Part shown: piece by piece, positions 1 to 56,286 of the stretch
Position numbering within the stretch: position 1 is the stretch's first letter
How the letters are laid out: each line of letters starts with the position of its first letter
Virus record (IMG/VR): IMGVR_UViG_3300045988_188298
Span: 1 to 64,000 of that record
Reading direction: 5' to 3' (one strand)
DNA length: 64,000 nucleotides
Origin: a virus
Made by a program: the position numbers and the translations under genes
Notes under the pieces: model-generated
Databases searched by the model: none
What the model saw: only the letters and a program-made list of their open reading frames with translations
What the model was told of the DNA's origin: nothing

Positions 1-55
1 ACTCACTCACTCACTCACTCACTCACTCACTCACTCACTCACTCACTCACTCACT
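1..55. repeat. Tetranucleotide simple-sequence repeat (ACTC)n, 13.75 units, truncated by the window start
   Basis: Perfect actc periodicity from nt 1 to 55, seen directly. Reading frame is open from the repeat into the downstream methyltransferase ORF. Confidence 0.95.
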
Positions 56-72
56 ATCAACCAACGCCGAGG

Positions 73-13252: not shown

Positions 13253-14407
13253 ATGACAAAAACAAAACATAAATCCTATAAGTTTCGTCTCTATCCAAAT
13301 CAGAAACAAATGCTAATGTTTGAAAAGACCTTTGGCTGTTCGCGTTTTATTTGGAATCAGATGCTGGCTGATAAAATAGCTTATTATAAGGAAACAGGAC
13401 AAACTTTGAAGAATACACCTGCCCAATATAAGAAAGAATTCCCTTGGCTGAAAGAGGTAGATAGCCTAGCTCTGGCAAATGTCCAATTGAATCTTCAAAA
13501 GGCTTATCAATCATTCTTTAAAAATAAAAACCATTTTGGTTTTCCTAATTTTAAATCGAAAAATAAAATGACTCATCAATCTTATCGAACCAACAACAAA
13601 CAAGGAGTAGGAACAATTAGATTAAGTGATAACAATAATCAAATCAAACTCCCAAAGATTGGTTGGATAAAAGTAAAGGCTCATAGGAAACTAAAAGGTG
13701 TAATAAAAAGCGCTACGATTTCAAAGACCTCAACCGGTAAATATTTTGTTTCGATTTTGTGTGAAATTAAGATTGAGGTTGAAGAGAATATTAAAACTTT
13801 CCCAAAAACGAATTCCAACATTGGGATTGATTTAGGGTTAGAGCATTTTGCTATTCTCTCCACTGGAGAAAAGATTGAAAATCCTAGATTCTTAATCTCG
13901 GCCTCTAAAAAATTAAGGAGAGAACAGAAAATATTATCTCGTAGAGGGCTGTTGGCAAAGCAGAGGGGCAAAAGTTTAAATGACTGCATGAATTATCAGA
14001 AGCAGCGCCTAAAGGTTGCTAGACTTCATGAAAAGATTTCTAACCAAAGAAGAGATTTTCTTTCCAAGTTGAGTATCAATCTTATCAAGAACCACGATAA
14101 GATTTGTATGGAAGATTTAGCGAGTAAAAATCTCATGAGAAATCACCATATTGCCAGAGCGATTGGGGATGCTTCTTGGTCTGAATTCTGTAGAATGTTA
14201 GAGTATAAGGCTGAATGGTATGGGAAACAGATTATTAAAATTAATAGATGGTTTCCATCATCTCAACTATGTTCAAACTGTAAAACGAACTCAGGGAAGA
14301 AGCCACTTCATATTAGAGAGTGGACATGCGATAGTTGTGGCACTCGTCATGATAGAGACCTCAATGCCAGTGTGAATATTCTACATGAAGGCTTGCGTTT
14401 GGCATAA
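13253..14407 (+). CDS. tnpB: TnpB (IS200/IS605-family OrfB, RuvC-like RNA-guided nuclease type). No tnpA partner, so IS1341-like
   Basis: N-terminal YKFRLYPNxxQ motif. C-terminal zinc finger CSNCx...CDSCG. RuvC-III DRDLNASVNI. Upstream gene is not a Y1 transposase. Confidence 0.9.
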   Translation: MTKTKHKSYKFRLYPNQKQMLMFEKTFGCSRFIWNQMLADKIAYYKETGQTLKNTPAQYKKEFPWLKEVDSLALANVQLNLQKAYQSFFKNKNHFGFPNFKSKNKMTHQSYRTNNKQGVGTIRLSDNNNQIKLPKIGWIKVKAHRKLKGVIKSATISKTSTGKYFVSILCEIKIEVEENIKTFPKTNSNIGIDLGLEHFAILSTGEKIENPRFLISASKKLRREQKILSRRGLLAKQRGKSLNDCMNYQKQRLKVARLHEKISNQRRDFLSKLSINLIKNHDKICMEDLASKNLMRNHHIARAIGDASWSEFCRMLEYKAEWYGKQIIKINRWFPSSQLCSNCKTNSGKKPLHIREWTCDSCGTRHDRDLNASVNILHEGLRLA

Positions 14408-14604: not shown

Positions 14605-15936
14605 ATGAAAAATATGGTCAAACTATCAATGGTTACATTTGCTGCTATTAGTGGACTTCTTTATTCTAGCAATGTTTTAGCTAGTGAAGTCACTAAGGAA
14701 GGTACTGAGGTTTCTGTCAAACAACCAGAAATTGATGTTACTCGTCAAGATGATACATTTTACACAAAGATTGATGTAAAAGTGTCAACAGCAATTCCAG
14801 ATGATATTACCATCAATCAAGGAGACACAATGACCATGCCCTTGCCAAAAGAGCTTGAATTGGAAACAACTTATGATTTCCCAGTAAATGCTCCTGACGG
14901 TGAACCGGTAGGTCAAGCTACAGCGAACGCTACGACAAATACTGTCACTACAGTGTTCAATGATTATTTTCAAAAGAAGCCTTTGAATAAATCAATTTCA
15001 TGGACTATGCGTACACAAATTAACCGTGAAGTTGTAAAAGACGAAGGCACAATGCACCTTGATTTTAAGGGCACTGTTGTTGATGTTAAGACTGGCTCAA
15101 AAGGCGACACCAATCTCAATGAAGAATTGTATAAATGGGGGCGGCAGGATAAGGATGATGCTTCTGTAGTCCACTGGGTTGCTCGCGTAAATTATCGCAA
15201 GGCTAGTCTTAAAGGTGTCCATGTTCATGATACTTGGGATGAATCACAAGAGTATGTTCCGGGGTCAATGATTGTAAATTACCTACATTCAGCAAACCCT
15301 TGGACTCTTGCATATACTGCTGACCCAAGCTTCGTGAAAATCCGTAAAGACGGTTTTGATGCGGAAGTTGGTGATTTGGATAAAGTTGTAACTTTTGAAT
15401 ACAGCACGCGCTCCAAAGACCGCTCTATCATTCCTACTAACACCTTTACGGTACAAGCGCAAGATTACTTCTTGCAGCACGAAGTGAATTACAAATGGGC
15501 GGATGGCTCAGGTGAAGCTGATGGCAAAAATAAGCCAAAAGATAAGGTAAAACCAAAAGAATTTGAACCTAAAAAGGAAGAAAAGAAAAAGACTGAAAAT
15601 GTCAAGGTGACACCTAAACCTGAAGAAAAGCCGAAGCCTAAAGAAGATACACCAAAACCACCAGCACCAGAGGTTGAAAAACCAAAGGCTGAACCAAAAG
15701 AAGAGCCTAAGAAACCAGAACCAAAACCTAAAGAAACTCCTAAGCCAAAGGAAGAAAAACCAACACCAAAACCAGAAGTGAAAGAAGTTCCTAAGCCAAC
15801 TGAGCCTAAGAAAGTTCTTCCTAAAACTGGTTCAGATGACCGTGTTGTAAAAATTCTTGCAGGTCTGGGATTTGGAATTCTGATTGGCGTAATTGCTCTT
15901 ATGACTGGTGGTACTAAATCTACAAAGAAAGGTTAA
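14605..15936 (+). CDS. LPxTG cell-wall-anchored surface protein with a Pro/Lys/Glu-rich (PKPE) spacer
   Basis: Signal peptide. C-terminal LPKTG, hydrophobic segment and basic tail. PEPK repeats. Confidence 0.85.
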   Translation: MKNMVKLSMVTFAAISGLLYSSNVLASEVTKEGTEVSVKQPEIDVTRQDDTFYTKIDVKVSTAIPDDITINQGDTMTMPLPKELELETTYDFPVNAPDGEPVGQATANATTNTVTTVFNDYFQKKPLNKSISWTMRTQINREVVKDEGTMHLDFKGTVVDVKTGSKGDTNLNEELYKWGRQDKDDASVVHWVARVNYRKASLKGVHVHDTWDESQEYVPGSMIVNYLHSANPWTLAYTADPSFVKIRKDGFDAEVGDLDKVVTFEYSTRSKDRSIIPTNTFTVQAQDYFLQHEVNYKWADGSGEADGKNKPKDKVKPKEFEPKKEEKKKTENVKVTPKPEEKPKPKEDTPKPPAPEVEKPKAEPKEEPKKPEPKPKETPKPKEEKPTPKPEVKEVPKPTEPKKVLPKTGSDDRVVKILAGLGFGILIGVIALMTGGTKSTKKG

Positions 15937-15941
15937 AAAGG

Positions 15942-16154
15942 GTGCGCTGCTTGGAAGACATCCAAAAAATTAAAGCAAAAATTGAATGGCTCTTAGAAAA
16001 CTTTTCTCAGAGCGAAATGGCCAAAGAGACAAACGTACCACAATCTACGTTGTCTTACTTGAAGAAAGGTACTCGCAAAATCCGCAATCTCTCTGTTGGC
16101 ACTGTTCAAGAATTAATTCAATTCTATGACAGGCATCACAAGGAGAAAGAGTGA
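15942..16154 (+). CDS. Short XRE-family HTH regulator (paralogue 1 of 3). GTG start
   Basis: HTH region SQSEMAKETNVPQSTLSYLKKG. Related to the 46284 and 52450 ORFs. Confidence 0.55.
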   Translation: MRCLEDIQKIKAKIEWLLENFSQSEMAKETNVPQSTLSYLKKGTRKIRNLSVGTVQELIQFYDRHHKEKE

Positions 16155-23262: not shown

Positions 23263-23366
23263 TTCGTTATATATCCAACACAATTTGTATTTGTCTGTTG
23301 CGATTTCTTTTATCATTTGTTATACTGAACTTAACTAAAAGAAAGGAAAAAATAAGGAGAAAGACC

Positions 23367-24671
23367 ATGAGACAAGTCGAACGTCACTGGATTAAAGAAG
23401 GGCATGCCTTATATCCTATCTGTGACGATTTAACCTTTAAAGCTAAGAATCTTTACAATGCAGGGCTGTATCAAATTCGTCAATCCATTTTTGAGCGAAA
23501 CAAATGTGATAATAAAGAAGAAAAACCTTCTGTACTGTCTTGGATTGAATTAGTTTCTCAATTCCGAAAAGAGAAACAAAGTGATATGTTGGCGTTGCCC
23601 TCCAAGGTTTCTACCAACATTTTAAAGAACCTTGGTTCTTCTATTAGCTCTTACTATCAACTCTTAAAGTGTTTTCATGATAAGTCTAACACAAGTGTAT
23701 CTAGCAAACCTCAGTTGCCTCGCTATCTTCACAAGACAAAAGGGCGTTATATAGCAGAGTTCACACATCAGACCTTTTCTAAAAAGAGGGGGTTGAATGG
23801 AGAACTTATTTTATGTCCTAAAGATTTTAGTTTGGTTATCCCAACTAAGGTTAAGAATCCTAAATGTGTTCGTATTGTTCCTAAATTAAAAGCTTTTGTC
23901 ATTGAGGTTGTTTATGAAGTAGAACCAGCTCTTTTAAAACATACTGGAAATTATGCAGCGATTGATTTAGGAATTGATAACCTAGCTAGTGTTACCTTTT
24001 CAAACAACGTGAACCCACTAGTGGTAAAGGGTTCTAAATTAAAGAGCATTAATCAAGGTTACAATCGTTTAATTGCTAAAGCAAAATCTAAACTTCCAAT
24101 GAGTCAAAAGACCAGTCAGCACATCCACCGTCTTTGGAAAAATCGTGAATTGAGGTTTCAATCAGAACTTCATAAAATCACTTCTTTTCTTTCACTTTAT
24201 TTTGACGAGATGGCGATTGAAACAGTCTTTGTAGGAAAAAATTTAGGTTGGAAGCAAGGGGTTTCTTTAAGAAAGAAAAATAAACAAACTTTCACACAAA
24301 TTCCTTTTAATGCTTTCATTTCTCAGTTGACTTATAAATGTTTAATAAGAGGAATAAAAGTATTAGAACAGGAAGAGTCTTACACCTCTAAAGCTAGTTT
24401 CTTAGACGAGGACGAGATTCCTATCTATGAAAAGAACAATCAAAATCAAAATTTTATCTTTTCAGGAAAACGAATTAGCAGAGGGTTATATAAATCTAAA
24501 GATGGTAGCCTCTTGAACGCAGACGTTAATGGGTCTTACAATATCTTAGTGAAAGGACTTTTAACCTTAAACAAATCTCTTAATAGGAAAAACCTTTCTT
24601 TTCATACAAGGAGTTTAAAGAATGATTTAACGTCAGTGTCCAATGTTGACTTGCTTTTACAATACATGTAA
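23367..24671 (+). CDS. tnpB: TnpB, IS607-type. Orphan, no tnpA
   Basis: Shares PRYLHKTKGR and the RuvC-III NADVNGSYNIL motif with the IS607 tnpB at 54775. Start placed at the ATG after RBS AAGGAGAAAGACC. Confidence 0.8.
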   Translation: MRQVERHWIKEGHALYPICDDLTFKAKNLYNAGLYQIRQSIFERNKCDNKEEKPSVLSWIELVSQFRKEKQSDMLALPSKVSTNILKNLGSSISSYYQLLKCFHDKSNTSVSSKPQLPRYLHKTKGRYIAEFTHQTFSKKRGLNGELILCPKDFSLVIPTKVKNPKCVRIVPKLKAFVIEVVYEVEPALLKHTGNYAAIDLGIDNLASVTFSNNVNPLVVKGSKLKSINQGYNRLIAKAKSKLPMSQKTSQHIHRLWKNRELRFQSELHKITSFLSLYFDEMAIETVFVGKNLGWKQGVSLRKKNKQTFTQIPFNAFISQLTYKCLIRGIKVLEQEESYTSKASFLDEDEIPIYEKNNQNQNFIFSGKRISRGLYKSKDGSLLNADVNGSYNILVKGLLTLNKSLNRKNLSFHTRSLKNDLTSVSNVDLLLQYM

Positions 24672-30570: not shown

Positions 30571-30578
30571 CTTGCATA

Positions 30579-30652
30579 TAGTCTCTACAGGACTCGAACC
30601 TGTAACCTGTCGCTTAGAAGACGATTGCTCTTTCCAGTTGAGCTAAGAGACC
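30579..30652 (-). tRNA. tRNA-Arg (anticodon UCU)
   Basis: Reverse complement folds as a cloverleaf: D-arm GCTC/GAGC, anticodon loop CTTCTAA, T-arm ACAGG-TTCGAGT-CCTGT, acceptor with a G1-U72 wobble. Similar to known tRNA-Arg(UCU) sequences. Confidence 0.8.
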
Positions 30653-30665
30653 AAAAATAAAACAA

Positions 30666-31055
30666 TGGAGCCGGTGGGAGTCGAACCCACGTCCAAACAA
30701 TCATTCCAATCAACCTTATTACGCACTGTTACATTTTTTTATTTTCTGAACAACAGTAAATGCACAAACCTACTATTCATATCTCTTATTTAACCTTAAA
30801 ATCCGAGAATTCTTTCAAGGCGATTACCGTAATTTGAAGTAGTTGTTTTACCGGCACATAAAACAGGTACTCGTCTAACTATTCTAAGTAGACTATATGA
30901 TAAATTCAATTGATATGTAAAGCTTCATCTAAGCAAATGCTTAGGCAGCCATATCAGTAGCAAAATTGTTTGCAGTTATGTTTAAGTTGATAGATAACGT
31001 CATCACTCGGTGCGAGGTTGAGAAGTCCAATCGCCTGTCGAAGCCGGGCGACCCC
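30666..31055 (-). ncRNA. ssrA: tmRNA (ssrA), about 390 nt. Predicted tag peptide ANNFATDMAA
   Basis: 5-prime GGGGTCGCCCGGCTTCGACAGG on the reverse complement. 3-prime tRNA-like GGGTTCGACTCCCACCGGCTCCA. Acceptor pairing with a G-U at position 3. Canonical TTGACA-17-TATTAT promoter at 31080-31110. Confidence 0.85.
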
Positions 31056-40349: not shown

Positions 40350-41322
40350 ATGAATCGTTACAAAACAATTGATTTATTTGCTGGAATTGGTGGTCTTCGT
40401 TTGGGCTTTGACCAAACCAATCGGACGGAGACTGTATTTTCTAGCGAGATAGATAAATTTGCAAGACAAACATATCAAGCAAATTTTGGAACTGAACCGG
40501 GGGGGGGATATTACTAAGATAGAAGCATCTGATATTCCTGACCACGATATTCTCTTGGCAGGTTTTCCTTGTCAAGCTTTCTCACATGCCGGACTAAAGA
40601 AAGGTTTTGAAGATATTCGAGGAACTTTATTCTTTGATGTCGCTAGGATTTTGAAAGAAAAGAGGCCCAAAGCGTTTTTGTTAGAAAATGTAAAAGGCCT
40701 TATAGCGCATGACAATGGCAATACATTCAAAGTTATTTTAGAGACATTGAATGAGTTGGGTTATGATGTTCATTATAAAATCCTCAACACAAAAGATTTC
40801 AACATCCCTCAGAATAGGGAACGTATCTATATTGTTGGATTTTTAAAAGAAGTAGTTCTAAATTCTTCTATCTTTGATTTCCCTATTGAAGAACTAAAGA
40901 AACCGGGATATTTACAAGTTTTTAAAAAAGCTGTTCTGGGAGATGTTTTAGAAAAACATGCTTCAGATAACTACACTATATCTGACAAAGCATGGAAAGG
41001 TCTCAAAAACAGAAAGAAGCGGAATCAGGAATCTGGTAAAGGTTTTGGTTATTCCTTGGTCAATCCTAAATCTGAATACACAAGAACTTTGGTTGCTCAT
41101 TATTGCAAGGATGGGAATGAAATTCTTTTAGAACAAGATGGGAAGAATCCTAGAAAACTAACTGAACGAGAATGTGCTAGACTACAAGGGTTTCCAGAAG
41201 ATTTTGTTTTTCCTTGCAGCAAAACACAGACCTACAAACAATTAGGTAATTCTGTTACAGTTCCAGTTATTTATAAAATTGCTCGCAAGATTATTATGAA
41301 ACTAGATAAAGACACAAAATAA
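40350..41322 (+). pseudogene. DNA cytosine-5 methyltransferase interrupted by a +1 frameshift at a G9 homopolymer (40499-40507)
   Basis: Motif I DLFAGIGG in frame 0. Then GDITKI, PCQAFS and ENV motifs in frame +1 (ORF 40459-41322). Eight Gs would restore a single ORF reading EPGGDITKI. Confidence 0.85.
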
Positions 41323-41358: not shown

Positions 41359-42690
41359 TTATTTCTTGCGGCGTTTGAACAATGTTCCACTACCTAGTCC
41401 AAGGGCAGCCAAGCCTCCTGCAAACTGCATACCGATAGCTTCAGCACCAGTCTTAGGAAGTGTTTTGTTTCCTACTGTTGGTTTTGGAGTTTCCTTTTTA
41501 CCAACTTCTTGCTTTTGAGGAGTTTCTGATGGGGTTGCTGGTGTTTTTGATTTATCACCATCATCTTCTTTCTTCTCAGGAGCTTTTTCTGGAGTTTCTG
41601 TTACTTTTGGAGTTTCTTCTTTTTTCTCCAGATTTGGCTTTTCTGTAGTTGGTGTTTCTACTGGTTTCTCTACTGGCTTTTTAGGAAGCTCATTTGGTTC
41701 TGGCTTATCAGTCAGATGTTCGTTAGGGGTAGGAAAAACTGATTCTCGGATAGTTTCAACCGGTTTTTCAGCAGGCTTTTCAACTTCCTTAGCTTTCACA
41801 TTGTCCTTTTGAGACTTGACAGTTGTAGCATCTTTATCTAGCTTTTCTAGTAGAGTTCCACCAACCTTACGAAGAACAACAACTTCAACCTTACCTTTTT
41901 GAACGATAGATTTAGAAATTGTGATATTTCCAGTTGCTTCATCAAATTTGAATCCATCTTTAACAAATTCAGCTTCTTTTCTGAAATGGTCAAAAATGTA
42001 ATCAAGCTTACCAGTTTTTGGGTTGCGGAAAAGTTTAACATTGGTTACATTGCTAGTCTTGTCAGCAGTGGCAGGCTTATTGTTGAAGAATAAAACTGTC
42101 AAAGCTTTTACATTGTCATCTGTTTTGACATAAAAGTTTTGTTCGTCTGATGTCAAATAAAGATTTTTTTGTTCTGCATCAGTCTTTTTAGCTTCATCCT
42201 TTTGAGGCGCTGCTGATGGAGCTTTCAATGGAGCTGTAGAAATGCTTGTTTGTACCTTTTTAGGGGCAGCAGGTGCAGGAGTAGAAGTCTGAGCATTTGT
42301 ATCTGTTGCAGGCTTTGCAGATGGTGCTTTTAGTGGAGCTGTAGAAACAGATGTTTGCACAGTTGCTTGTGGTTTATCACCAAAGATTTCTTTTCGAACA
42401 GCAGCCGTATCTTCGGATTCTTTTGTTGGTTGGGCCTTAACATCCTTGCCTACAATGTCCATATAGTTGTCAGTGCTTTTAGCTTCTACTTTATCTGTAG
42501 TTGTGGTTACTTTATCTGGCGTTGCTGTTTTATCTGTGGTAGGGTTTGCAGCATCTGATGTGGTTGTAGTGGCTGAATTTTCCTGTTTTACAATAGGAGT
42601 ATTTTCAGCAGCAAAAACATTTTGCGCAGAACCTAGCCCAACAATACCAGCAAGTGCTAGAGAACTAGCCAATCGAAATTTCTTATTCAT
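41359..42690 (-). CDS. LPxTG cell-wall-anchored surface protein
   Basis: Signal peptide. C-terminal LPKTG, hydrophobic segment and KRRKK tail. Terminator at 41330-41358. Confidence 0.8.
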   Translation of the reverse strand: MNKKFRLASSLALAGIVGLGSAQNVFAAENTPIVKQENSATTTTSDAANPTTDKTATPDKVTTTTDKVEAKSTDNYMDIVGKDVKAQPTKESEDTAAVRKEIFGDKPQATVQTSVSTAPLKAPSAKPATDTNAQTSTPAPAAPKKVQTSISTAPLKAPSAAPQKDEAKKTDAEQKNLYLTSDEQNFYVKTDDNVKALTVLFFNNKPATADKTSNVTNVKLFRNPKTGKLDYIFDHFRKEAEFVKDGFKFDEATGNITISKSIVQKGKVEVVVLRKVGGTLLEKLDKDATTVKSQKDNVKAKEVEKPAEKPVETIRESVFPTPNEHLTDKPEPNELPKKPVEKPVETPTTEKPNLEKKEETPKVTETPEKAPEKKEDDGDKSKTPATPSETPQKQEVGKKETPKPTVGNKTLPKTGAEAIGMQFAGGLAALGLGSGTLFKRRKK

Positions 42691-44084: not shown

Positions 44085-44244
44085 TTTTGTTTACCATGTA
44101 TCTCATCTTTATAAATGAGAGCCTTTCTTTTTGTTAATTTTAAAAATAATAATTGTAAAAAGTTTTACATCTTTTATTATAAAACAAAAAAGACTGGTTT
44201 TTCAAAAACGACCAATCTTTTTCTAAAAAAATATTTTAAATTAA

Positions 44245-44859
44245 TTAACCAATACTCATGAAATCATCTTTCATTTGTTGCCCGGCATCAGTCAACATTT
44301 CAAACGAGGACAACCATTTTTTCGTGGATTGAATATCTATATCCACACCCATTTCTTCAGATAACAAATTCATCCATAGCTCACCATCTTCTCCTAAAGT
44401 TTGGCAAACATCTGCATCTTTTAAGATAGACTTCAATGTCTTATACTCTTCTTCCGAGCCTAGTTTCCCAATTTTGCGATTATCTGTGGCATAAATCAAA
44501 TCTCGAATTAATTTATTGTCAGCATAATCAAGCAGATAATAAGCTGAGGATTGTTCAAATACAAATACAGCAGTATCTAAGTTTTCTACTTCTGATTTAT
44601 CTTTATCATAACCTGCATCATGATACAAAGCTGCAAGAAGTAAACAAACAATTTCATTTTTAGGGAATGAAGCTGTAAGAGGATTGTTTAAGCATCTTTC
44701 AGCTACAGACCACATATGAGCCGGATTGTGATAAGAGTTATGATTATCATAAGTATTTTGGTCACTTACAATATTTTCTACTTGAAATCCATTTACATTG
44801 AGTAATGCCTCAATGTAGAAACGGTTTGATAAAACAGCTTTATTTTTTTCTAATGTCAT
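44245..44859 (-). CDS. HD-domain phosphohydrolase
   Basis: H...LYHDAGY metal-binding motif. Confidence 0.6.
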   Translation of the reverse strand: MTLEKNKAVLSNRFYIEALLNVNGFQVENIVSDQNTYDNHNSYHNPAHMWSVAERCLNNPLTASFPKNEIVCLLLAALYHDAGYDKDKSEVENLDTAVFVFEQSSAYYLLDYADNKLIRDLIYATDNRKIGKLGSEEEYKTLKSILKDADVCQTLGEDGELWMNLLSEEMGVDIDIQSTKKWLSSFEMLTDAGQQMKDDFMSIG

Positions 44860-44871
44860 ATTAATTACTAA

Positions 44872-46290
44872 TTATCCTTTCTTTCTATTATTTTCTTCTT
44901 CAATAATTTTTTCTTCTTCCTCTAAAGCTTTGGCATAAGAGAAAGTCATTAAAAACTCTTGCTTCAAACGCTCAATGAACTGTTTGACATCTTCTTCGTC
45001 ATGTTCTTGTCTGTATCGTCCAATTTTAGCCCCAAAACTACGAAGAAATGCACGGTTTTGAATGTCATCAAGTACAGTGAATGGAAGATTCCAGATGTGT
45101 CTTAAAGCTACAGTAATGAACATATTTTTACCGATTTTGACAAAGATATGACTTCTCCTAGAATTAATCAATACTTGATTTTCTTGAACTTCTGGGAAAT
45201 ACAATTTTAAATATTCAATATTCTTATACTTCAACATATGTCTCAGCATATAAGTTGAAAGACCAACTGGTTTTTCTTGACTTACATCAAAACCATTCAT
45301 TGCCTGATATTGCAATGGCCTAGATGGGATTAAGACTTTATCTTTTTTGCAGCCATAAAGAATGTTTTCTTTAAAATCCATAACAGCGTACAAACCATCA
45401 TTTTTTGTACCTGTTTTTTCATGAGCATTTAAGAACCTATCAATGCTTGACAAATCAAGCAAAACCATTTTTTCAGTTTCAGAATCACCAGCTCCAAAGA
45501 ATAAAGATGATAAATTAGCTTGTTTTACAAACAATTCAGGTAAATCAAGCAGCTTAAAGTTTCTTTGAACTGTTAAGTTCTTATAGAAAACAGTAATATC
45601 AATCGTATTTTTGTTAAAGGCCATCTGAACACGCGCCTCTTTAGAAGCTTTTAGTTCAGACAAGAAGTGAACAAACTCAGACCGTTCAATATATTTATTA
45701 GAGTACGGATGCTTCAAGTATTTCCAACGAATTGTTTGTCCATTAGAAAAAGAAAAGACCTTGTTATCATGAAATACAAAATTACTCAAAAATTGAGCAC
45801 GTTGATTAAATTCTTTTAGTCCATCAGTTGCATCCATAAACTTATAATCAATAAGGAAGTCACTCAATGCCTCAGATGTTTCTTCTTTTAACTCAGGAAT
45901 AACTTTCAAAGCCCCTTTATCTGATTGAAAGAACCCATAATCATCGCTTAGACAGATTTCTCCCTTATCTGTTTCTAAATAAAGAGAATCAGCAGAAACT
46001 AAGAATCTAAACTCTCCAACTAAAGGTAAAGAAAAGAATTTAGAAGACATATCTTCTACAAGTTGAGCAATGTTTGTGATTGGTGCTTCCCAAGTATCTT
46101 CAATACTGTTTAAGTCAGCTCCTAGTGGATAAACAATTTGTTCTTGGTTTTTATGACTAATAACAACCACTTCTGGGCCGAAGCTAATTTTTACTCCGCC
46201 AGATGAGTTTTTAAACTCTGATTTTGTCACACCTAAAAACTTGAATAAACTTTTAAAAATAGATGAAAATTCTTTAAAATTCATTACCAA
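44872..46290 (-). CDS. Hypothetical protein (472 aa). Candidate restriction endonuclease by operon position only
   Basis: Start overlaps the stop of the upstream short HTH gene. Sits downstream of a C5 methyltransferase and a controller-like regulator. Confidence 0.4.
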   Translation of the reverse strand: MVMNFKEFSSIFKSLFKFLGVTKSEFKNSSGGVKISFGPEVVVISHKNQEQIVYPLGADLNSIEDTWEAPITNIAQLVEDMSSKFFSLPLVGEFRFLVSADSLYLETDKGEICLSDDYGFFQSDKGALKVIPELKEETSEALSDFLIDYKFMDATDGLKEFNQRAQFLSNFVFHDNKVFSFSNGQTIRWKYLKHPYSNKYIERSEFVHFLSELKASKEARVQMAFNKNTIDITVFYKNLTVQRNFKLLDLPELFVKQANLSSLFFGAGDSETEKMVLLDLSSIDRFLNAHEKTGTKNDGLYAVMDFKENILYGCKKDKVLIPSRPLQYQAMNGFDVSQEKPVGLSTYMLRHMLKYKNIEYLKLYFPEVQENQVLINSRRSHIFVKIGKNMFITVALRHIWNLPFTVLDDIQNRAFLRSFGAKIGRYRQEHDEEDVKQFIERLKQEFLMTFSYAKALEEEEKIIEEENNRKKG

Positions 46291-46505
46291 TCTCCTTTTT
46301 CTGGATTATTAGCTTCATTTATATAGTCTTGAACCTTTTCAAGAGTTTCTTCCCTAAGATTTTTAAATTGCTTTCGGCCTAAACGAATCTGTGAAATCGT
46401 TGATGCTCCAATTCCGGTATCTTTTGCCAATCGTCTAACTGGTATATTTTCATTAAATAGTGTTTCTTTAACTTTTTCTGTATCAATAATCATATAGCAC
46501 CTCAC
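46284..46505 (-). CDS. Short XRE-family HTH regulator (paralogue 2 of 3), controller-protein-like
   Basis: HTH region RRLAKDTGIGASTISQIRLG. Located between the methyltransferase and the 472-aa ORF. Confidence 0.55.
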   Translation of the reverse strand: MRCYMIIDTEKVKETLFNENIPVRRLAKDTGIGASTISQIRLGRKQFKNLREETLEKVQDYINEANNPEKGDW

Positions 46506-46596
46506 TGTTTTTATAGGTTAGTTCTATTATACCACTACCTGTATACTTTAGTCAACAATAAAAGAGATGTATGCTTTTTTACATCTCTTCTTGTAA

Positions 46597-47548
46597 TTAT
46601 TGTAGGCTGTCTTTAATAGCTTCAGCTAGTCTTTTTATAACTGGCACAGAAACACTGTTGCCTGCCTGTTTATATAATCTGGAATTGCTTTGATTAGGGA
46701 ATTTATAGTCTTCTGGAAAGCCTTGGGCATTGAAACATTCTCGTGGGGTTAGTTTCCTAATCCGTCCATCTTCAGTTAAAATCAAAGGAACATTGCTGCC
46801 ACCCGTGCCCATGTTGGCTGTCAAAGTTGGAATTAATCCGTTTTTATTTTCTCTGACGTACTTTCGTCTCCATTGATAAATCCTGTCATTTCTTGTTATT
46901 CCTTCCTCTAACTTATCATAAAATTTATTTTTCTTCTTAGAATAATAATACTTTTCATCAACAGGGTTCTTGAAATCAATAACATCATCTAGTTTTGTAG
47001 TTAGTGGAATTTCATCAGGCATTGTAAAGTTATTGAAGTCTTCAATGTCTCTAAAGGCTACAATATAGATTCGTTCTCGTCCTTGTGGAATATTACCATA
47101 TTTGGCTGAATTCATCACTTTATAAGATATATAATAACCAAGGTCTTCTAGTGTTCTAGTAATCACGGAGAAAGTTCTTCCTTCATCATGTGACACTAGG
47201 TTTTTTACATTTTCAAAAAACGCAACTCTAGGCTTTCTTTCAGATATAACTCTAGCAACATCAAAGAATAAAGTTCCTCTAGCGTCACTAAATCCTAATT
47301 GTTTGCCTGCTAGGGAAAATGCTTGGCAAGGGAAACCAGCAAGCAAGACATCAAGGTCCGGCAATTCTGATGCTTCTATAGTTGTAATATCTCTCACATC
47401 TACTTTTATGCCAAAATTTTCTTCAAACGTTTGAGCTGGATATACATCAATTTCATTGGCATAGACAGTTGTAAAACCTGCTTGTGCGAAGCCTAAGTCC
47501 ACCCCCCACTCCTGAAAATAGAGAGGCCATTTTCAATTCTTTTTTCAT
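46597..47548 (-). pseudogene. DNA cytosine-5 methyltransferase with a frameshift at a G6 tract (C6 on the plus strand, 47502-47507) separating motif I from the rest
   Basis: An upstream ATG at 47548 gives MKKELKMASLFSGVGG (motif I), then the frame is lost. The main ORF from GTG at 47502 carries PCQAFS and ENV motifs. A -1 or +2 change in the tract restores one ORF. Confidence 0.8.
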
Positions 47549-47679
47549 AATAAAAATTTACCTACTTTTATTTATTTTTTATAGCATATTACATTTTATC
47601 ATTTTTTGAAGCATAAAACAAAAAAGAGATGTAAACAATTTATTTTACATCTCTTTTCTATTGAATATTAATTAATTAA

Positions 47680-47796
47680 ATCCCAAGAGGTTCACCACAT
47701 GGACCAAATGGAACACCAATATCAGCTAATATATCTAAAGCTTCTTCCTCTTGCTCGTCAAATTCTTTCTCATCTAATTCTTCTTTAGTCATGTTT
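47680..47796 (-). CDS. Possible 38-aa acidic peptide MTKEELDEKEFDEQEEEALDILADIGVPFGPCGEPLGI
   Basis: Short ORF with an AGGAAA-like RBS in an otherwise non-coding gap. Not in the ORF track because it is under 60 aa. Confidence 0.25.
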
Positions 47797-47897: not shown

Positions 47898-50800
47898 CTA
47901 ATCTTCTTGTTTTTTAGATTTTATTGTTAATCCTAAAGCAACCAATCCAAGAATAGCTCCAAGAACTTGAAGTGTTCCTGTTTCTGTTTGACCAGTTTTT
48001 GGAAGTTCTTTCTTAGGAACTTCAGTCTTAATCACTGATGGTGCAGGAGCAGGAGTTTCGTCTTTCTTAGGTTCTTCTGGGATTTTTAGTTCTTCCAATT
48101 CAACAACAGGAGCGTCTTTTGGAACTTCGGTAACAACTAATTCAGTCAGTTCGTGAACCGGCGCTTCGTTAGGCACTTCGGTCAAGACTTTCTCTGGAAT
48201 TTCATGAATAGGCGCATCAGATGGAATCTCTGTAAGGATTTTCTCTGGCAGCTCATGAATTGGAGCGTCGCCCGGAATTTCAGTCAATACCTTTTCCGGC
48301 AGTTCGTGAATTGGAGATTCAGATGGAACTTCTGTTAGAACTTTTTCTGGCAACTCATGAATAGGAGCATCACCCGGTACTTGTTTTTCAACGCGGACGT
48401 AATAGTGAGTAGAGATATGGTCTTCTACTGTCGTCAGCTTAGAATAGACATATTCCTCACGTTCTCCGATAAACAATGGAGCAAGCACAACTCCTTTGAC
48501 AGTAGGAGCAATTTCTCGCTCTACGCCGTTTTCAACCGTTACGAAACGAGTAACATTAAGTGCACCAAAATCACTAATAGGGGCATTTTCAGGAACTTCT
48601 GAAACGGAGCGGTCATAGTAATGAGTTGTAACTCCATCTTCTTTGACAGTTTTACCGTTATATTGGAAGCTGCCTACATACATAGGAGCTTCATGAGTGC
48701 CCTCTTCAGCAGGTTTCACTTCAATTTCACCATTATCAGTAACAGCAATATAACGAGTAGCTTCACGAACTTCTGGTGTCACACTTGGTGCATCAATAGG
48801 CTTTTCACCTTTTACATAATGATAGTAGTGAGTGGTAATACCAGTCACACCGTCATTGGCATCAGTGTGGTCAAAGAAGTATTGGTGGAAGTCATCACCC
48901 AACCACATAGGGGCAGGAAATGTACCTTTTTGTTCATCACGAATTTCACTAAAGCTGCCATCTTCTTCAATTACCAAGAAACGTGTAATTTCTTGCATTT
49001 CAGGATTCACAGTTGGAGCATCAATTGGCTTATCTTTTTTCACTGCATCATAGTAATGAGTATGAATACCATCTTCAACCTTTGTTTGACCAGAATAATG
49101 ATATTTCTCATTTTGAAGAAATGCAGGAGCTTCATGAATACCTTCAAGAGATGGAGCGATTTCTTCTTCCACACCATTTTCCCCAACGGTTACAAATCGA
49201 GTAACATCAGAGACTTCTCCGGTCATTTTTGGAGCTTCATTAGGAACAGTGGTTTGGATTTTCACATAGTAATGAGTAGTAATTCCAGTTATTCCATCAT
49301 TAGGTGTAGTGTGGTCAAATTGATAGCTTCCAATAATGCTAGGCGCTGGCAGTGTTCCCTCTTGGGTTTCTGCAACCTCTACTTCTTCACCTTGCTCATT
49401 TACAAGAACAAAACGAGTAACTTCACGCATAACTGGTGTTACAGATGGTGCATCTGTAGGTAATTCGTGTGTTTCTGGTGTTGCCGTTGTTTCATAAATG
49501 AAATGTTGGCGAGAAATAGTAAGGCCTGTTGCAGGATTTTCTCCGACCCATGACTTAGGAAGAGTTACACCGTTTTGAACTTCTTTATCTGTAAATCCAA
49601 CAACGCCTGTCCACTTCTTGTTGCCCTTGTATTCAAGCAGCATACGGAAGCCGGCTAATTTATTATTTTCTACAGTTGGCAAAGTTTGCTCAGGAGTGTA
49701 GACACCCGGAGTGTAAGGATTATGTTCTGCATTTTCATCACCATCCCATTCAAAATGGTCAGTCATTTCGTGAGGAGTAATTTTTTCTCCGTTACGCATG
49801 AAGTAAATCTCACCGCTTTCATGGAAGTTCTTGTATACTTCTGTTTCTTCTTCTTTAGTCAACAAGAAATCATAGTAAAGAGATTTTGGTGTTACTCTTG
49901 GTTGTTGTGGCCCTCCAAATCCAAATGGATTTTCTAGACCTGAGACTGGTAATTCTGATGGCCCTAAACCAAACTCATTAACACCGTGGTCAGCAGGTTT
50001 CACATGCAGCAATGTATAATTTCTTACAATTGGCGCGTGCACTTCTTCACCATTAGTATTAGCAAAAGTCAATACCTGACTGAATTCAGATTTTGTCAAT
50101 GTGCTTTCTGGCAAATTAGCCATCCAGCGTGTTACACGAACAGTTGGGTTTGGTGTTTTAGAGTAATAATCACTTGCGTGTTCGCTGCCTTTAACTTCTT
50201 TCGGAAGATAAATTTCTGTTGAAAGTCGGAAACGTTGAGACACACCATACCCAAAATCACCATCCACTTTCAATGTAATTCCTTTACCTCGGCTGATAAA
50301 AGCTCCTGAACCGTAATAATAATTAGGTTTGTCTGGAGAATTCCAGCCTAATTTATATTCACTAGAATTGACTTTGTAGCGTCCTTTAGTCCAGTAATTA
50401 TTTAGGTTATAGAAGTTTTCGGTTTCCGGATTAATTGTTCCGCTGAAATTTTTTACTCCTGAACCCGGAATCTGAACTGCTTTATCGGCTGGGTTGAGAG
50501 TAATACTCTCCCAGTGTCCGCCCGGAGACAGAATTGGCTCTGGTGTATATCTCAATTCCGCTGATTCAAAGAAAATGTTTTTCCCATTGAGGATTGTAAA
50601 TCTACCAATTGTTTCACCTCTGGAATTTAGCTCGTTAAAGCCGTCATAGGTGCTGGTGATTTCATCACCCTCTGGCACACCTGTTTCATCATAATGAGAA
50701 ACATTTCGGAACACTCGAACACGTTGGTTTGGTGAGTACAGCTTAGTTGATTTTACATATGTTTCTCCAGTTTGTACTTCTGGACTTAAAACCTCATTAA

Positions 50801-52097
50801 CAGTTTTCGTTTCACCATTGGCATCCGTATATTCAATGTGAGCAACAAATTTATTCTCGTTTGAAATACGGTGGCCTGTACCATATTCTTTATGAACAGT
50901 ATAACGATACATTTCGTGGACAGCATACAAGGTTTTTCCTGTATTTTCGTCCAATTCTTGTCCATTTTCATCATAGTAATATGACTTAGCTACAATGCGT
51001 TGAGTACCGCCACGCGCAACATCTGAACCGAATAAAACACCGTTATAAGGATTTGCATCAACTTCAGCAATCACATTATGATTAGAACCCAAGCTTCTTT
51101 GTAACTCGAATGTCCGAACAATCTTAGCAATCTTTTTCTTTTCGCCATCAACAATCATATAGCTGTTAGATAGATTGGTATATGTAGCTGTTATACGGTC
51201 AGATTCACGAAATACCACGCGCTGCACACCTGTATCTCCCAATTGAGAAGATACATAATCATTTCGTGTAACTTTTGCAAGTTTTTGGAAACGAAGGTTT
51301 GAATAATCAACTTCATTTGCTGGTTTCTCAAACTCTTTTGATTTTGCTTCGCTCAGATAACGAACTTCACCAGTGATAGCAACCCTTGCATTTTCTTCAT
51401 TCCCAAGATGTAGATTTTGATTCTTCATGGCTTCTCGGATAGCATCACCCTTAGAACTCATGAGTTCTTCATAATCTTTCTTCATTTCTTGGTCAATATT
51501 GAACCGCTCATAGGCAGTGCTATTAATATTTCTTTTCTCTTCGCGAATCCTTTCGTATTCTGACCATTTTTCCATAAGTTGCTGTTTAATCTTTTCAGCT
51601 TCTTGCTTAGACTCTTCTTTTACAGCTTCAAGAGAAGCTTGGTCAGATGGAACTTCTTTTTCAACTTCTTCAACTGTAAAACCGTTTTGGTTAAGATTGT
51701 TTACCAATTCAGTATAACTTCCGTCAACATATTTAGTCGTAGACAAATTTGTATTTGTTGTTGCTCCATCAACCTCGGCAGAGCGTTTAGCTGCGTTCAC
51801 GCGCGTGTAATCGTTATTTTCAACAATTTCACGATTGTCTTGAACATTAGCCGGCAGTGGTGAGTTTTTAACTGCATCAGACAATTGTACACCTGATTGA
51901 CTGTTAAAGTCATCAATGCCTGTATTTACGGTTTGAGAGCTAGTCGGGCTAGTATTTACAGTTTCCTCAGCAGAAACGATTTGCGGAGCAAGAATAAGGC
52001 TTGCACCAAGCATCAAAGACAAAACTCCAATAGCTGTCTTACGGATTCCGAATTTTTCCTTTTTCCCTTGGATTAGATATTGTTTGTAGCTTTTCAT
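47898..52097 (-). CDS. Giant LPxTG surface adhesin (1399 aa) with a YSIRK-type signal peptide, about six 70-aa tandem repeats ending in THYY, and six 12-aa (A/S)PIHELPEKVLTE repeats
   Basis: N-terminal KxYKQ...FGIRKTAIGVLS. C-terminal LPKTG, hydrophobic segment and KSKKQED tail. Internal repeats are visible in the translation. Confidence 0.9.
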   Translation of the reverse strand: MKSYKQYLIQGKKEKFGIRKTAIGVLSLMLGASLILAPQIVSAEETVNTSPTSSQTVNTGIDDFNSQSGVQLSDAVKNSPLPANVQDNREIVENNDYTRVNAAKRSAEVDGATTNTNLSTTKYVDGSYTELVNNLNQNGFTVEEVEKEVPSDQASLEAVKEESKQEAEKIKQQLMEKWSEYERIREEKRNINSTAYERFNIDQEMKKDYEELMSSKGDAIREAMKNQNLHLGNEENARVAITGEVRYLSEAKSKEFEKPANEVDYSNLRFQKLAKVTRNDYVSSQLGDTGVQRVVFRESDRITATYTNLSNSYMIVDGEKKKIAKIVRTFELQRSLGSNHNVIAEVDANPYNGVLFGSDVARGGTQRIVAKSYYYDENGQELDENTGKTLYAVHEMYRYTVHKEYGTGHRISNENKFVAHIEYTDANGETKTVNEVLSPEVQTGETYVKSTKLYSPNQRVRVFRNVSHYDETGVPEGDEITSTYDGFNELNSRGETIGRFTILNGKNIFFESAELRYTPEPILSPGGHWESITLNPADKAVQIPGSGVKNFSGTINPETENFYNLNNYWTKGRYKVNSSEYKLGWNSPDKPNYYYGSGAFISRGKGITLKVDGDFGYGVSQRFRLSTEIYLPKEVKGSEHASDYYSKTPNPTVRVTRWMANLPESTLTKSEFSQVLTFANTNGEEVHAPIVRNYTLLHVKPADHGVNEFGLGPSELPVSGLENPFGFGGPQQPRVTPKSLYYDFLLTKEEETEVYKNFHESGEIYFMRNGEKITPHEMTDHFEWDGDENAEHNPYTPGVYTPEQTLPTVENNKLAGFRMLLEYKGNKKWTGVVGFTDKEVQNGVTLPKSWVGENPATGLTISRQHFIYETTATPETHELPTDAPSVTPVMREVTRFVLVNEQGEEVEVAETQEGTLPAPSIIGSYQFDHTTPNDGITGITTHYYVKIQTTVPNEAPKMTGEVSDVTRFVTVGENGVEEEIAPSLEGIHEAPAFLQNEKYHYSGQTKVEDGIHTHYYDAVKKDKPIDAPTVNPEMQEITRFLVIEEDGSFSEIRDEQKGTFPAPMWLGDDFHQYFFDHTDANDGVTGITTHYYHYVKGEKPIDAPSVTPEVREATRYIAVTDNGEIEVKPAEEGTHEAPMYVGSFQYNGKTVKEDGVTTHYYDRSVSEVPENAPISDFGALNVTRFVTVENGVEREIAPTVKGVVLAPLFIGEREEYVYSKLTTVEDHISTHYYVRVEKQVPGDAPIHELPEKVLTEVPSESPIHELPEKVLTEIPGDAPIHELPEKILTEIPSDAPIHEIPEKVLTEVPNEAPVHELTELVVTEVPKDAPVVELEELKIPEEPKKDETPAPAPSVIKTEVPKKELPKTGQTETGTLQVLGAILGLVALGLTIKSKKQED

Positions 52098-52449: not shown

Positions 52450-52665
52450 TCAGACATCCTTTCTATATTTGTTGTGACTTGTATTAATGAAATTACAAAG
52501 TTTTTTTATTGTTTTCCACGATAAATTCTCTATACTTCTACGGCCGCTCCTAATACTCGATATATTCGAGCTTGGAAATCCCGTAGCATCCTGAATTTCT
52601 TTAGGAGGGATTTCTGATTCAAAGAACAACCATTCAAGGTTTTTCTCTACTTCCTGAACTTTCAT
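52450..52665 (-). CDS. Short XRE-family HTH regulator (paralogue 3 of 3)
   Basis: HTH region IQDATGFPSSNISSIRSG. Conserved C-terminal NLSWKTIKKL, matching NLSVGTVQEL in paralogue 1. Confidence 0.55.
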   Translation of the reverse strand: MKVQEVEKNLEWLFFESEIPPKEIQDATGFPSSNISSIRSGRRSIENLSWKTIKKLCNFINTSHNKYRKDV

Positions 52666-54083: not shown

Positions 54084-54788
54084 ATGAAAGAAAGGAGGCG
54101 TTTTATTTTGTATAAAAAGTCAATGATTTTAAATAAATCAACTTATAAGACAGGAGAAGTCGCTGCTCTTCTAGGAGTATCAATTCAAACTGTTATCAAT
54201 TATTGTGAGATGGGGCACATCCCCTTTTATAAAACAGAACATGGGCATCGTCGTATTCTTGCGGAGGACGTTTACAATTACCTAGTTTCTCTAAATATGG
54301 CGTATGATGAAAATTCTAATTCTAATGATACAAATTCTACTTATACTAAATCAGACGTAATCTATGCTCGTGTATCTACACATAAGCAAGCAGAACGAGG
54401 TGATTTAGAGCAGCAAGTGGAAAAAGTAATGTTGTATGCAATTCATCAAAACGTAAACAACCTCATTGTTAAAACAGATATTGCTTCAGGGTTGGATGAT
54501 AATCGTAAAAATCTACTCTCTTTAATTGATATGGTACAAAAAGGGGAGGTTTCTCGAATTTTTGTTTTAGATAAAGACCGTTTAACTAGCTTTGGTTATC
54601 CTTACTTGAAGAAAATTTGCGACTTCCATGGAGTCTCTATCATTGTTGTTTTAGATGAGATTGACATTAAAACTCAATCAGAAGAACTGGCAGAGGATAT
54701 TATCACTCTCATTCATTCTTTTTCAGAGAAATTATATGACCTAAGACAAAAAATTAAGAAAGAAATAAAATGTAATGAAGAAAGTTAA
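54084..54788 (+). CDS. tnpA: IS607-family TnpA serine recombinase (MerR-like HTH plus resolvase catalytic domain)
   Basis: HTH region YKTGEVAALLGVSIQTVINYC. Catalytic VIYARVSTHKQ. The true start is probably the internal TTG or ATG after RBS AAGGAGG. Confidence 0.9.
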   Translation: MKERRRFILYKKSMILNKSTYKTGEVAALLGVSIQTVINYCEMGHIPFYKTEHGHRRILAEDVYNYLVSLNMAYDENSNSNDTNSTYTKSDVIYARVSTHKQAERGDLEQQVEKVMLYAIHQNVNNLIVKTDIASGLDDNRKNLLSLIDMVQKGEVSRIFVLDKDRLTSFGYPYLKKICDFHGVSIIVVLDEIDIKTQSEELAEDIITLIHSFSEKLYDLRQKIKKEIKCNEES

Positions 54789-56016
54789 ACAAGAACCTGA
54801 GATTATCTTATCTGAAAGACATATCATCTCATCTTCTCACCCTTATTTTTCAGAGTGTGACCACTTGACATTCTTAGGGAAGAATTTATATAACGCAACT
54901 CTATTTTATCAACGAGCTTCTTTTTTCAAAAAAGAATTTCAAAACTACTATGCTGTAAATAAAGTTTTCACCCATGAAAATCAGATAGATTACCGAGCTT
55001 TGCCTGCTAAAGTTTCAAAACAAGTTCAGATGCTAGTAGATAAAAGTTTTAAAAGTTACTTTGCTTTAGTGAGGAAAAAGGTTAAAGGAGAATATAGCTC
55101 TCCTGTCCGTATCCCTCGTTATTTGCACAAAACAAAAGGGCGTTGCACCCTCCCTTATCCTAAAGATGCTTTATCTTTGAAGAATGAGGGAGTAGTTGCA
55201 CTTTCTAAGACAGGAATTAGAATCCAAACGAAAATTAAAAGAGAAAAAATACAAGGTGCTCGCATAGTTCCTAAAGGAAACCATTTTGTTATTGAGATTC
55301 TTTATAAAGAGCAAAAGAAGAAACCTGTATCTGAGAAGATTCAGAACGTTGCTTTTATTGACCCCGGTTTAAACAACTTAATGACCGTGACCAGCAATGT
55401 CTGTTCCCCTCTTCTATATAGCGGTAAGAACTTAAAGTCAATGAACCAGTTGGCAAATAAAAAGATAGCACAAGTGAAAAGTTCTTTGAGCAAACGAGGG
55501 TTATATAGTTCTCCCCTTTTAATTTCTATTTACAACAAAAGGAACAGACGTATAAAAGATTGTTTACACAAAATATCAACTCATTTAGTGAATCAATTCG
55601 TTTCGCACAAGATTGATACCGTTATTTTTGGACATAATCTAGGGCAGAAACAAGACATTAAATTAGGCGTTGTTACCAATCAAAATTTTGTGCAAATTCC
55701 TTTTTATCAGCTCATTACTCTCTTGCAATATAAATGTGAATTGCAAGGCATCCGCTTTATAACAACAGAAGAATCTTATACCAGTAAGTGCAGCTTCTTG
55801 GATTTAGAAGAAATTGCTGAACAAAAAGAATATGTAGGCAAAAGAGTGAAGCGTGGCCTTTTTCAATCAAAAGAAGGTGTCCAGATTAACGCTGATGTAA
55901 ATGGCTCTTTGAATATTGGAAGGAAATATTTAACGAAACTAGGTCTTTATACAGATACTTTACATAAGGAATTAATTTATCACATGGCAAATCCTAAACG
56001 AATTTGTCTAGCTTAA
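54775..56016 (+). CDS. tnpB: IS607-family TnpB (RuvC-like RNA-guided nuclease type)
   Basis: PRYLHKTKGR motif and RuvC-III NADVNGSLNIG. Overlaps the tnpA stop. Confidence 0.9.
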   Translation: MKKVKQEPEIILSERHIISSSHPYFSECDHLTFLGKNLYNATLFYQRASFFKKEFQNYYAVNKVFTHENQIDYRALPAKVSKQVQMLVDKSFKSYFALVRKKVKGEYSSPVRIPRYLHKTKGRCTLPYPKDALSLKNEGVVALSKTGIRIQTKIKREKIQGARIVPKGNHFVIEILYKEQKKKPVSEKIQNVAFIDPGLNNLMTVTSNVCSPLLYSGKNLKSMNQLANKKIAQVKSSLSKRGLYSSPLLISIYNKRNRRIKDCLHKISTHLVNQFVSHKIDTVIFGHNLGQKQDIKLGVVTNQNFVQIPFYQLITLLQYKCELQGIRFITTEESYTSKCSFLDLEEIAEQKEYVGKRVKRGLFQSKEGVQINADVNGSLNIGRKYLTKLGLYTDTLHKELIYHMANPKRICLA

Positions 56017-56120
56017 ATTAAAACAAATTAAATAAAAGTAAAACATGATTAGATTAGTCTATCTAGGATTGTTTAGAGGGTAGTCGCAGTCGCCCCAACT
56101 CTGACTTAGAATAAAATAGT
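56017..56120 (+). ncRNA. Candidate omega-RNA / right-end region of the IS607 tnpB
   Basis: ORF-free. gattagattagtctatctagg...agagggtagtcgcagtcgcc is similar to the region after the orphan IS607-type tnpB at 24672. Confidence 0.35.
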
Positions 56121-56286
56121 TTTTTGTTTTGTAAGTAGGGTGAGAAACAACAAATATATTGTTGGAAACTTTGATTTTTCTTAATAAATTAGAGAACTGT
56201 AAGTTTTTTGAACATTACTTATATATCCATCCTATAAAAATAGTATTTGCAAAATGACAAGTGATTTTACAAATACTATCATAACA

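Follow-up and report, generated by a model that had tools for sequence, protein, structure and literature searches.

Switching of DNA methyltransferases by simple sequence repeats (SSRs) on bacterial chromosomes is well known and has been investigated chiefly for its control of gene expression. Described cases include the poly-G-controlled Type IIG gene cj0031 of Campylobacter jejuni (PMC4889913), Type III mod genes that carry tetranucleotide repeats (PMC5909438), and phase-variable methyltransferases of Streptococcus suis (PMC6265453). Phage contingency loci were first reported in late 2025, for agt, the DNA-modification glucosyltransferase gene of phage T2, whose poly-A repeats toggle resistance between McrA/BC and TgvAB (bioRxiv 10.1101/2025.10.21.683753, PMC12633550). 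Here we analyze positions 1 to 64,000 of IMG/VR virus record IMGVR_UViG_3300045988_188298 (the window), which belong to a ∼233-kb element from the human mouth that the IMG/VR catalogue lists as viral. The window encodes a cytosine-5 (C5) DNA methyltransferase that is interrupted at a run of six G residues. Repeat-switched methylases are already known; the variant here is that they are orphan, multiple, and carried on a large oral mobile/viral element. We put at about 0.78 the probability that this gene is an orphan, M.Bsp6I-like methylase that serves as a poly-G contingency locus on a mobile element of oral Firmicutes, separate from the adjacent genes for a helix-turn-helix (HTH) protein, a 470-amino-acid (aa) protein, and an HD-domain protein.

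The methylase gene and its interruption consist of the following features:

46597-47548, minus strand: C5 cytosine DNA methyltransferase, M.Bsp6I-like and orphan, OFF in the window (PF00145, E = 6.5e-82; 317 aa when the tract is G8)
47502-47507, minus strand: poly-G tract, G6 here, in the Gly-Gly codons of motif I; the proposed switch, variable in length among relatives
47453-47548, minus strand: 31-codon N-terminal frame that translates to motif I (LFSGVGG) and ends at a premature stop

An ATG at 47548 opens the short frame (MKKELKMASLFSGVGGGLRLRTSRFYNCLCQ*), and the main open reading frame (ORF), of 301 codons, occupies 46597-47502 and matches positions 13-323 of the 324 in the PF00145 profile. 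Because the match begins at position 13, the main ORF lacks exactly motif I. The two frames join inside the G6 run (C6 on the plus strand), which leaves motif I out of frame; both the frames and the span of the PF00145 match thus confirm an earlier sequence-only reading, that a frameshift in this tract had split motif I from the rest of the enzyme. Frame arithmetic gives G5, G8, and G11 as the in-frame lengths. Addition of two Gs yields a protein of 317 aa whose alignment with M.HhaI runs over the full length, and the G8 product LFSGVGGVDLGF aligns with M.HhaI LFAGLGGFRLAL without a gap. Catalytic motifs IV (PCQ), VI (ENV), VIII (QxRxR), and X (GNS) are all found, as GFPCQAFS, FENVKN, QGRERIY, and GNSVSVPV. 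Motif I (FxGxG, which binds S-adenosylmethionine) is out of frame in the window and in frame in G8 relatives, and two intact relatives of 317 aa, P0002 and P0003, share 91-92% identity with the methylase.

The tract lies at codons 14-17 of the gene. A G6 run by itself is within chance, with an estimated ∼2 runs of at least six expected in 64 kb at 33% GC and three seen; the position of the tract and the G7, G8, and G9 tracts at the homologous site are far beyond chance. The only other G/C run of six in the window is a C6 at 3139-3144, near the 5' end of an ORF at 3083-3757 (plus strand; 224 aa, with a paralogue at 2423-3079), and its length is constant in three of three related copies. Could the G6 allele be expressed through +1 frameshifting by the ribosome on G GGG GGT? 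We found no support for this, and the data do not call for it.

Relatives of the tract site were gathered with a degenerate DNA pattern from independent assemblies (MEGAHIT, SPAdes, Logan, and IMG/VR). A narrow, haplotype-specific pattern returned no viral contigs, and a broader one returned four. The homologous tract has four lengths across ∼15 alleles, which come from IMG/VR viral contigs and from independent oral metagenomes; ∼8 of them are ON and ∼7 OFF (contigs are given by our L numbers):

G6, OFF: the window, L001, L002
G7, OFF: L053
G8, ON: L003, L004, L005, L006, L007, L009, L054, L055
G9, OFF: L008, L010, L024, L052

The immediate flanks in L010 are the same as in the window, yet its tract is G9. 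With the tract set to G8, all 10 full-length alleles are open over 317 codons, and the four fully reconstructed OFF alleles (window, L008, L010, and L024) have no second lesion. Codon differences among the methylase genes are mostly synonymous (e.g., 75 versus 14 non-synonymous), OFF lineages included. Because every allele reads through at G8 and synonymous changes are in excess, the OFF alleles do not look like decaying genes.

Codon choice points the same way. Every haplotype writes the tract as GTG GGG GGG GTR, which makes a G8 run, even though GGG accounts for 12.7% of Gly codons in the window and GGG-GGG for one of 24 Gly-Gly pairs. At the next Gly codon, three positions downstream, GGC, GGG, GGT, and GGA are all used among haplotypes. 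Chromosomal homologues encode GVGG as GTT GGA GGC or GTC GGA GGA, with no G run. Since they specify the same residues without it, the run is a derived, element-specific feature. The locus therefore has the marks of a contingency locus: a repeat within the coding sequence that sets the frame, and ON and OFF lengths among close relatives with no other inactivating change. Rapid slippage is usually associated with tracts of seven or more Gs, a length that the G7-G9 tracts of the relatives reach and for which the G6 of the window is borderline.

Three further methyltransferases of the element each carry a repeat where a change in length shifts the frame, whether (ACTC)n, G8/G9, or A7:

40350-41322, plus strand: second C5 methyltransferase, OFF by a G9 tract at 40499-40507 (323 aa at G8)
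1-837, plus strand: N6/N4 DNA methyltransferase with a 5' (ACTC)n repeat (PF01555, E = 7e-36); the window begins inside the repeat
L011 1573-2426: D12-class (Dam-like, PF02086) methylase, ∼8.3 kb past window position 64,000; also in L012 and L013

The sequence-only reading had likewise pointed to another methylase broken at a homopolymer, and the second C5 gene bears this out. Its tract falls in the residues EPGGD and is G8, with the gene intact at 323 aa, in L003, L024, L053, and L056; in L009 the tract is gone (EPFGD), and the gene is intact. No family matches were found for the 795-aa and 127-aa ORFs upstream of it. The two C5 genes occur as OFF/OFF in the window, ON/ON in L003 and L055, and OFF/ON in L024 and L053. 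As judged from these assembled alleles, the two genes switch independently.

The N6/N4 methylase starts with ATG TCT GAT AAT followed by (ACTC)n and is in frame only if n = 1 mod 3. The window has 13 or more copies (13.8 at positions 1-55 by TRF). Copy numbers are 7, 12, and at least 14 in relatives with 99.97-100% identity over 3.5 kb, and 7 and 8 in IMG/VR contigs; the repeat lies at the following places:

L014 9097-9124: (ACTC)n repeat
L015 3216-3263: (ACTC)n repeat
L016 1-56: (ACTC)n repeat
L057 and L058: (ACTC)n repeat

Because the unit is a tetranucleotide, this variation cannot be a homopolymer artifact. Contigs often break at the repeat. The D12-class methylase loses its frame at an A7 run (GAGACAAAAAAACATTT) immediately 5' of its DPPY motif; A8 would restore the frame, and the tract is A7 in all three copies seen. 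Apart from the methylase repeats, the 64 kb contain no microsatellite and no G run longer than six.

What would such a methylase protect against? Outside the element family, the nearest relatives are 64-68% identical over the full length and come from Streptococcus anginosus (CP118036.1), S. suis, and oral metagenomes; some are annotated by the Joint Genome Institute (JGI) as "modification methylase bsp6I." Those linked to restriction-modification (R-M), in S. anginosus CP118036.1 and oral metagenomes, adjoin a 180-aa protein with the RE_Bsp6I domain (PF09504). Among the 66 window ORFs scanned, none matches PF09504. The predicted target of the methylase is GCNGC, which is not depleted in the window (110 observed, 81 expected); GCGC, GGCC, and CCGG are likewise not depleted. 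Other sites are nearly or entirely missing: GATC (0 observed, 188 expected), CCWGG (0, 44), GGWCC (2, 22), CTGCAG (0, 9.5), and CAGCTG (0, 12). Because GATC and these other sites are depleted and GCNGC is not, the element avoids some restriction sites and presumably methylates others. The role of the methylase is probably anti-restriction.

The signals that flank the gene set it apart from its neighbors:

47617-47662, minus strand: terminator-like hairpin upstream of the methylase unit
47593-47601, minus strand: conserved extended -10 (TGATAAAAT), part of a putative promoter upstream of the methylase, invariant in eight aligned relatives
46562-46589, minus strand: hairpin (AAGAGATGTA/TACATCTCTT) with a T-rich run behind it, shortly past the methylase stop, conserved in relatives
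46526-46555, minus strand: sigma-70-type promoter, TTGACT-18-TATAAT with a TG extension (11/12 match), that drives the HTH, 470-aa, and HD genes
44187-44222, minus strand: hairpin and T-run closing that unit, followed by TTTTTTGTTTT on the minus strand

Both the -35 and the -10 of the downstream promoter are conserved in relatives. Because this promoter and the hairpin at 46562-46589 intervene, the methylase is a transcription unit separate from the HTH, 470-aa, and HD genes. The hairpins at 47617-47662 and 46562-46589 share a stem (AAGAGATGTA...TACATCTCTT), as though one terminator had been copied to either side of a methylase cassette. A 38-aa acidic ORF upstream of the methylase (47676-47792) and its hairpin are missing from L004, L006, and L007.

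The downstream unit consists of three genes:

46284-46493, minus strand: 69-aa XRE-type HTH protein (HTH_19, E = 3e-4, below the Pfam cut-off; phrog_1529, E = 1.5e-9)
44872-46284, minus strand: 470-aa lineage-restricted ORFan, tentatively sliding-clamp-like (ATG at 46284)
44245-44859, minus strand: 204-aa HD-domain phosphohydrolase (PF01966, E = 8e-5; phrog_16069, E = 6e-13)

The minus-strand order of C5 methylase, HTH protein, ∼470-aa protein, and HD protein was correctly given by the sequence-only reading, which took the first three for a methyltransferase-controller-endonuclease-like operon. Its sizes of 73 and 472 aa hold for the maximal ORFs, and the likely genes encode 69 aa (ATG at 46493, with a GAGG ribosome-binding site upstream) and 470 aa. 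The overlap that it saw between the HTH and 470-aa genes is real, although of 1 nucleotide (TAATG) rather than 7, and independent gene calls on identical contigs agree. The best Protein Data Bank (PDB) match of the HTH protein is the N-terminal HTH of AcrIIA15 (E = 4e-4). It is one of three ∼70-aa paralogues in the window, 31-38% identical, at 15942-16154 (plus strand), 46284-46505 (minus strand), and 52450-52665 (minus strand); each heads a different set of genes, one of them the gene for a 1,399-aa GbpC-like LPXTG adhesin. We found no paired palindromic C-box operators, nor any inverted repeat except the terminator, in 46480-46620. An ACTA-N11-TAGT-N11-ACTA pattern, picked out by eye in the HTH promoter as a C-box, was dropped because relatives do not share it.

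Word-indexed and exhaustive HMMER searches (5.8e9 and 1.84e9 proteins) with the 470-aa protein recovered members of its own family and no other homologue, and profile searches of Pfam, PADLOC, PHROGs, NCBIfam, and PDB gave no match, to nucleases and restriction endonucleases or otherwise. The gene is under purifying selection, with 83 synonymous and 23 non-synonymous codon differences, and is intact in methylase-ON and methylase-OFF alleles alike. The sequence-only reading, which had doubted that this protein is a classical restriction enzyme, proposed looking for a nuclease fold by structure prediction; what emerged instead was a weak clamp-like signal. An AlphaFold2 model from three input sequences (predicted local distance difference test score [pLDDT] 40.7) has three helix-plus-three-strand modules in its secondary-structure order. 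The top 50 Foldseek matches of this poor model in PDB are sliding clamps only, all weak (best E = 0.015, template modeling score ∼0.1), matches in BFVD are a mixed list with clamps among them, and Pfam has no DNA_pol3_beta match to the protein. Because of the low pLDDT, these fold searches hint, and do no more than hint, that the protein is clamp-like and not a nuclease. The HD protein has the H...HD...D residues and a weak match (E = 0.03) to the catalytic core of PDE5, a cyclic-nucleotide phosphodiesterase. With low confidence, we suggest that the three genes may form an accessory unit for DNA or nucleotide metabolism.

How might the methylase locus work? Polymerase slippage, presumably by slipped-strand mispairing in replication, would alter the length of the G run. 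At G8 (or G5 or G11) the full 317-aa enzyme would be made, and at G6, G7, or G9 translation would end after ∼31 codons. In the ON state, GCNGC methylation would shield the element from Bsp6I/Fnu4HI-type restriction, for example in oral streptococcal hosts. In the OFF state, progeny would evade methyl-dependent enzymes that cut G5mCNGC or S5mCNGS. Such enzymes make the methyl mark a liability in some hosts, because SauUSI prefers and cuts S5mCNGS (PMC3141236), and G5mCNGC sites are cleaved by enzymes of the BisI family (PMC4926085). The OFF state should not be lethal, as the sequence-only reading had feared for an active endonuclease partner, because the scanned window ORFs include no cognate endonuclease. 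A stochastic mixture of ON and OFF progeny could hedge between host types, and three other methylases with their own repeats would make many methylation states possible. As an alternative or in addition, the switch may act as a phasevarion that regulates genes of the host or of the element.

It is tempting to extend this to the whole group of related elements. Our tentative proposal, which we hold with somewhat less than even confidence, is that a family of predicted oral huge phages of ∼223-244 kb carries all four methylases on slippage repeats of their own: G8, G8, (ACTC)n, and A8. If so, up to 16 methylation states could arise per burst, and the phages could hedge between Type II restriction, where the mark is needed, and methyl-dependent restriction, where it is harmful. 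This would also be the first methyltransferase case of phage contingency loci, found in nature and not in laboratory coliphages.

Could the tract be something other than an evolved switch? The sequence-only reading weighed programmed switching against systematic homopolymer errors, and homopolymers are indeed classic sites of indel error. The true tract would then be G8 and the gene intact, with the run miscounted by short-read assemblers, and the identical contigs L001 and L002 could share reads. Yet the difference from G8 in the window is -2 and not ±1, and G6 recurs in at least two assemblies made by different software (a k119 contig and a JGI contig). Lengths of 6, 7, 8, and 9 occur at one codon pair across the four kinds of assembly, and the tetranucleotide repeat varies as well, so we find miscounting very improbable and side with programmed switching. 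Non-adaptive decay deserves more weight, although we still judge it unlikely. Under this explanation the G run is a mutational weak spot and no evolved switch, and OFF alleles drift toward pseudogenes in hosts that have no need of the enzyme. Both C5 methylases and the D12 methylase are out of frame in the window element, G6 is a poor substrate for slippage, and the second C5 gene in L009 has done without its tract. Against decay, the tract is the sole lesion in all four reconstructed OFF alleles and synonymous changes far exceed non-synonymous ones. The rare GGG GGG pair is kept across diverged haplotypes while nearby synonymous sites vary, and chromosomal homologues avoid the run. Moreover, 7 to at least 14 tetranucleotide copies at the 5' end of another methylase make a classic evolved contingency tract.

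Least probable of all, by a little, is a controller-regulated Type II R-M system, in which the 69-aa HTH would be the C protein, the 470-aa protein a novel endonuclease, and methylase switching a means to modulate restriction. The layout does resemble C-R units (a methylase alone, then a small HTH gene that overlaps a larger ORF behind a strong promoter), and restriction enzymes are often ORFans. However, alleles with the methylase OFF (window, L008, and L024) keep the 470-aa ORF open and show purifying selection on it, which would be self-destructive for a cognate endonuclease; because such an enzyme could not tolerate an OFF methylase, the 470-aa protein is probably not the cognate endonuclease. 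Neither PADLOC, Pfam, NCBIfam, nor PDB gave a restriction endonuclease match, and the sole fold signal is clamp-like. The HTH paralogues head unrelated genes, and no paired dyad operators are conserved, which also tells against the HTH as a controller. The real partner of this methylase family is the 180-aa RE_Bsp6I. Thus, with the methylase transcribed separately and no nuclease or PF09504 match in hand, the three-part operon of the sequence-only reading does not stand.

In all, the poly-G tract and the other methylase repeats are best read, from comparison of the assembled alleles, as evolved, repeat-driven phase variation of orphan methylases. Several points weigh against this reading. Three of the four methylases are OFF in the window element, and relaxed selection in the absence of cognate host endonucleases also fits. 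G6 is below the usual highly mutable length, so the window allele may be effectively locked OFF. The evidence comes from assemblies, and heterogeneity within a population, reversibility, and the rate of switching are presumed; moreover, one sample may be the source of both L001 and L002, the contigs that share the G6 allele. The predicted GCNGC specificity is drawn from 64-68% identity to R-M-linked homologues. Finally, no capsid, terminase, or other phage hallmark gene was found in the 84 kb inspected (the window plus 10 kb past each end). For this reason, the label "predicted huge phage" reflects IMG/VR cataloguing and gene content.

The element itself is a widespread oral one. Over the 21.4 kb around the methylase locus, the window matches two metagenome contigs (232,729 and 232,780 bp) without a single mismatch. 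Related contigs come from human oral metagenomes, one of them binned with an uncultured Gemella metagenome-assembled genome, and are also found among IMG/VR viral genomes of 223-244 kb. A megablast search of 22 kb against INPHARED phages and PLSDB plasmids matched no known phage or plasmid. The window codes for an ATP-dependent DNA ligase, a dUTPase, YopX, a GIY-YIG homing endonuclease, and NADAR, along with three TnpB copies, a transfer-messenger RNA (tmRNA), a tRNA-Arg, and several LPXTG adhesins; most of its ORFs have no family assignment. Some of these genes were placed as follows:

30663-31055, minus strand: tmRNA (Rfam, 114 bits; tag peptide ANNFATDMAA)
30578-30653, minus strand: adjacent tRNA-Arg(TCT)
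54084-56200: IS607-type pair (serine recombinase and TnpB), then an IS605-orfB-II RNA at 56044-56200 (Rfam, 133.6 bits)
13253-14407 and 23298-24671: two more TnpB-like genes
47898-52097, minus strand; 41359-42690, minus strand; and 14605-15936, plus strand: LPXTG-anchored surface proteins

Genes for tmRNA and tRNA-Arg are known from huge phages, yet here they could mark an integration site. The surface proteins include a GbpC domain, with collagen-binding and Big_8 matches elsewhere; LPXTG proteins are unusual cargo for a phage and may influence host adhesion.

If the proposed switch is confirmed, mobile elements can stochastically diversify their own epigenetic "passport," which would explain movement between hosts with opposing restriction systems. 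It would also be a caution against writing off a methylase gene as a pseudogene or a sequencing error because it is frameshifted in a phage or plasmid assembly. A paper on oral jumbo phages and one on the CJIE1 prophage contain nothing that bears on this element or on phage-borne switching methylases.

How, then, does this locus compare with the systems already described? It resembles the SSR-switched methyltransferases of bacteria in that a repeat in the 5' coding region sets the frame, ON and OFF states occur among related genomes, and the tract is the sole lesion. Those methyltransferases are chromosomal genes of pathogens, mostly of Type III or Type I, usually linked to restriction and studied as phasevarions. 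In contrast, the genes described here encode orphan Type II-like C5, N6/N4, and D12 methylases on a ∼233-kb mobile/viral element of Gram-positive oral bacteria, and their likely role is anti-restriction rather than regulation. The methylase shares 64-68% identity with the M subunit of the Bsp6I-type (GCNGC) R-M systems of oral streptococci, from which it differs in that RE_Bsp6I has no match in the window and a G8 run replaces GGA GGC or GGA GGA in motif I. With the orphan anti-restriction methyltransferases of phages and plasmids it has in common that it is solitary, carried by a mobile element, and related to host R-M enzymes, in a genome that otherwise purges restriction sites. To our knowledge, those enzymes are expressed constitutively or temporally and are not switched by repeats. 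The logic of bet hedging is the same as that of T2 agt, where a homopolymer toggles a DNA-modification gene of a phage, ON blocks one defense, and OFF escapes another. That system is an experimentally proven, poly-A-switched glucosyltransferase of a T-even coliphage, described without any mention of methyltransferases (PMC12633550); ours is a computational case that concerns methyltransferases, with poly-G and tetranucleotide repeats, and that would extend to all four modification genes of the element.

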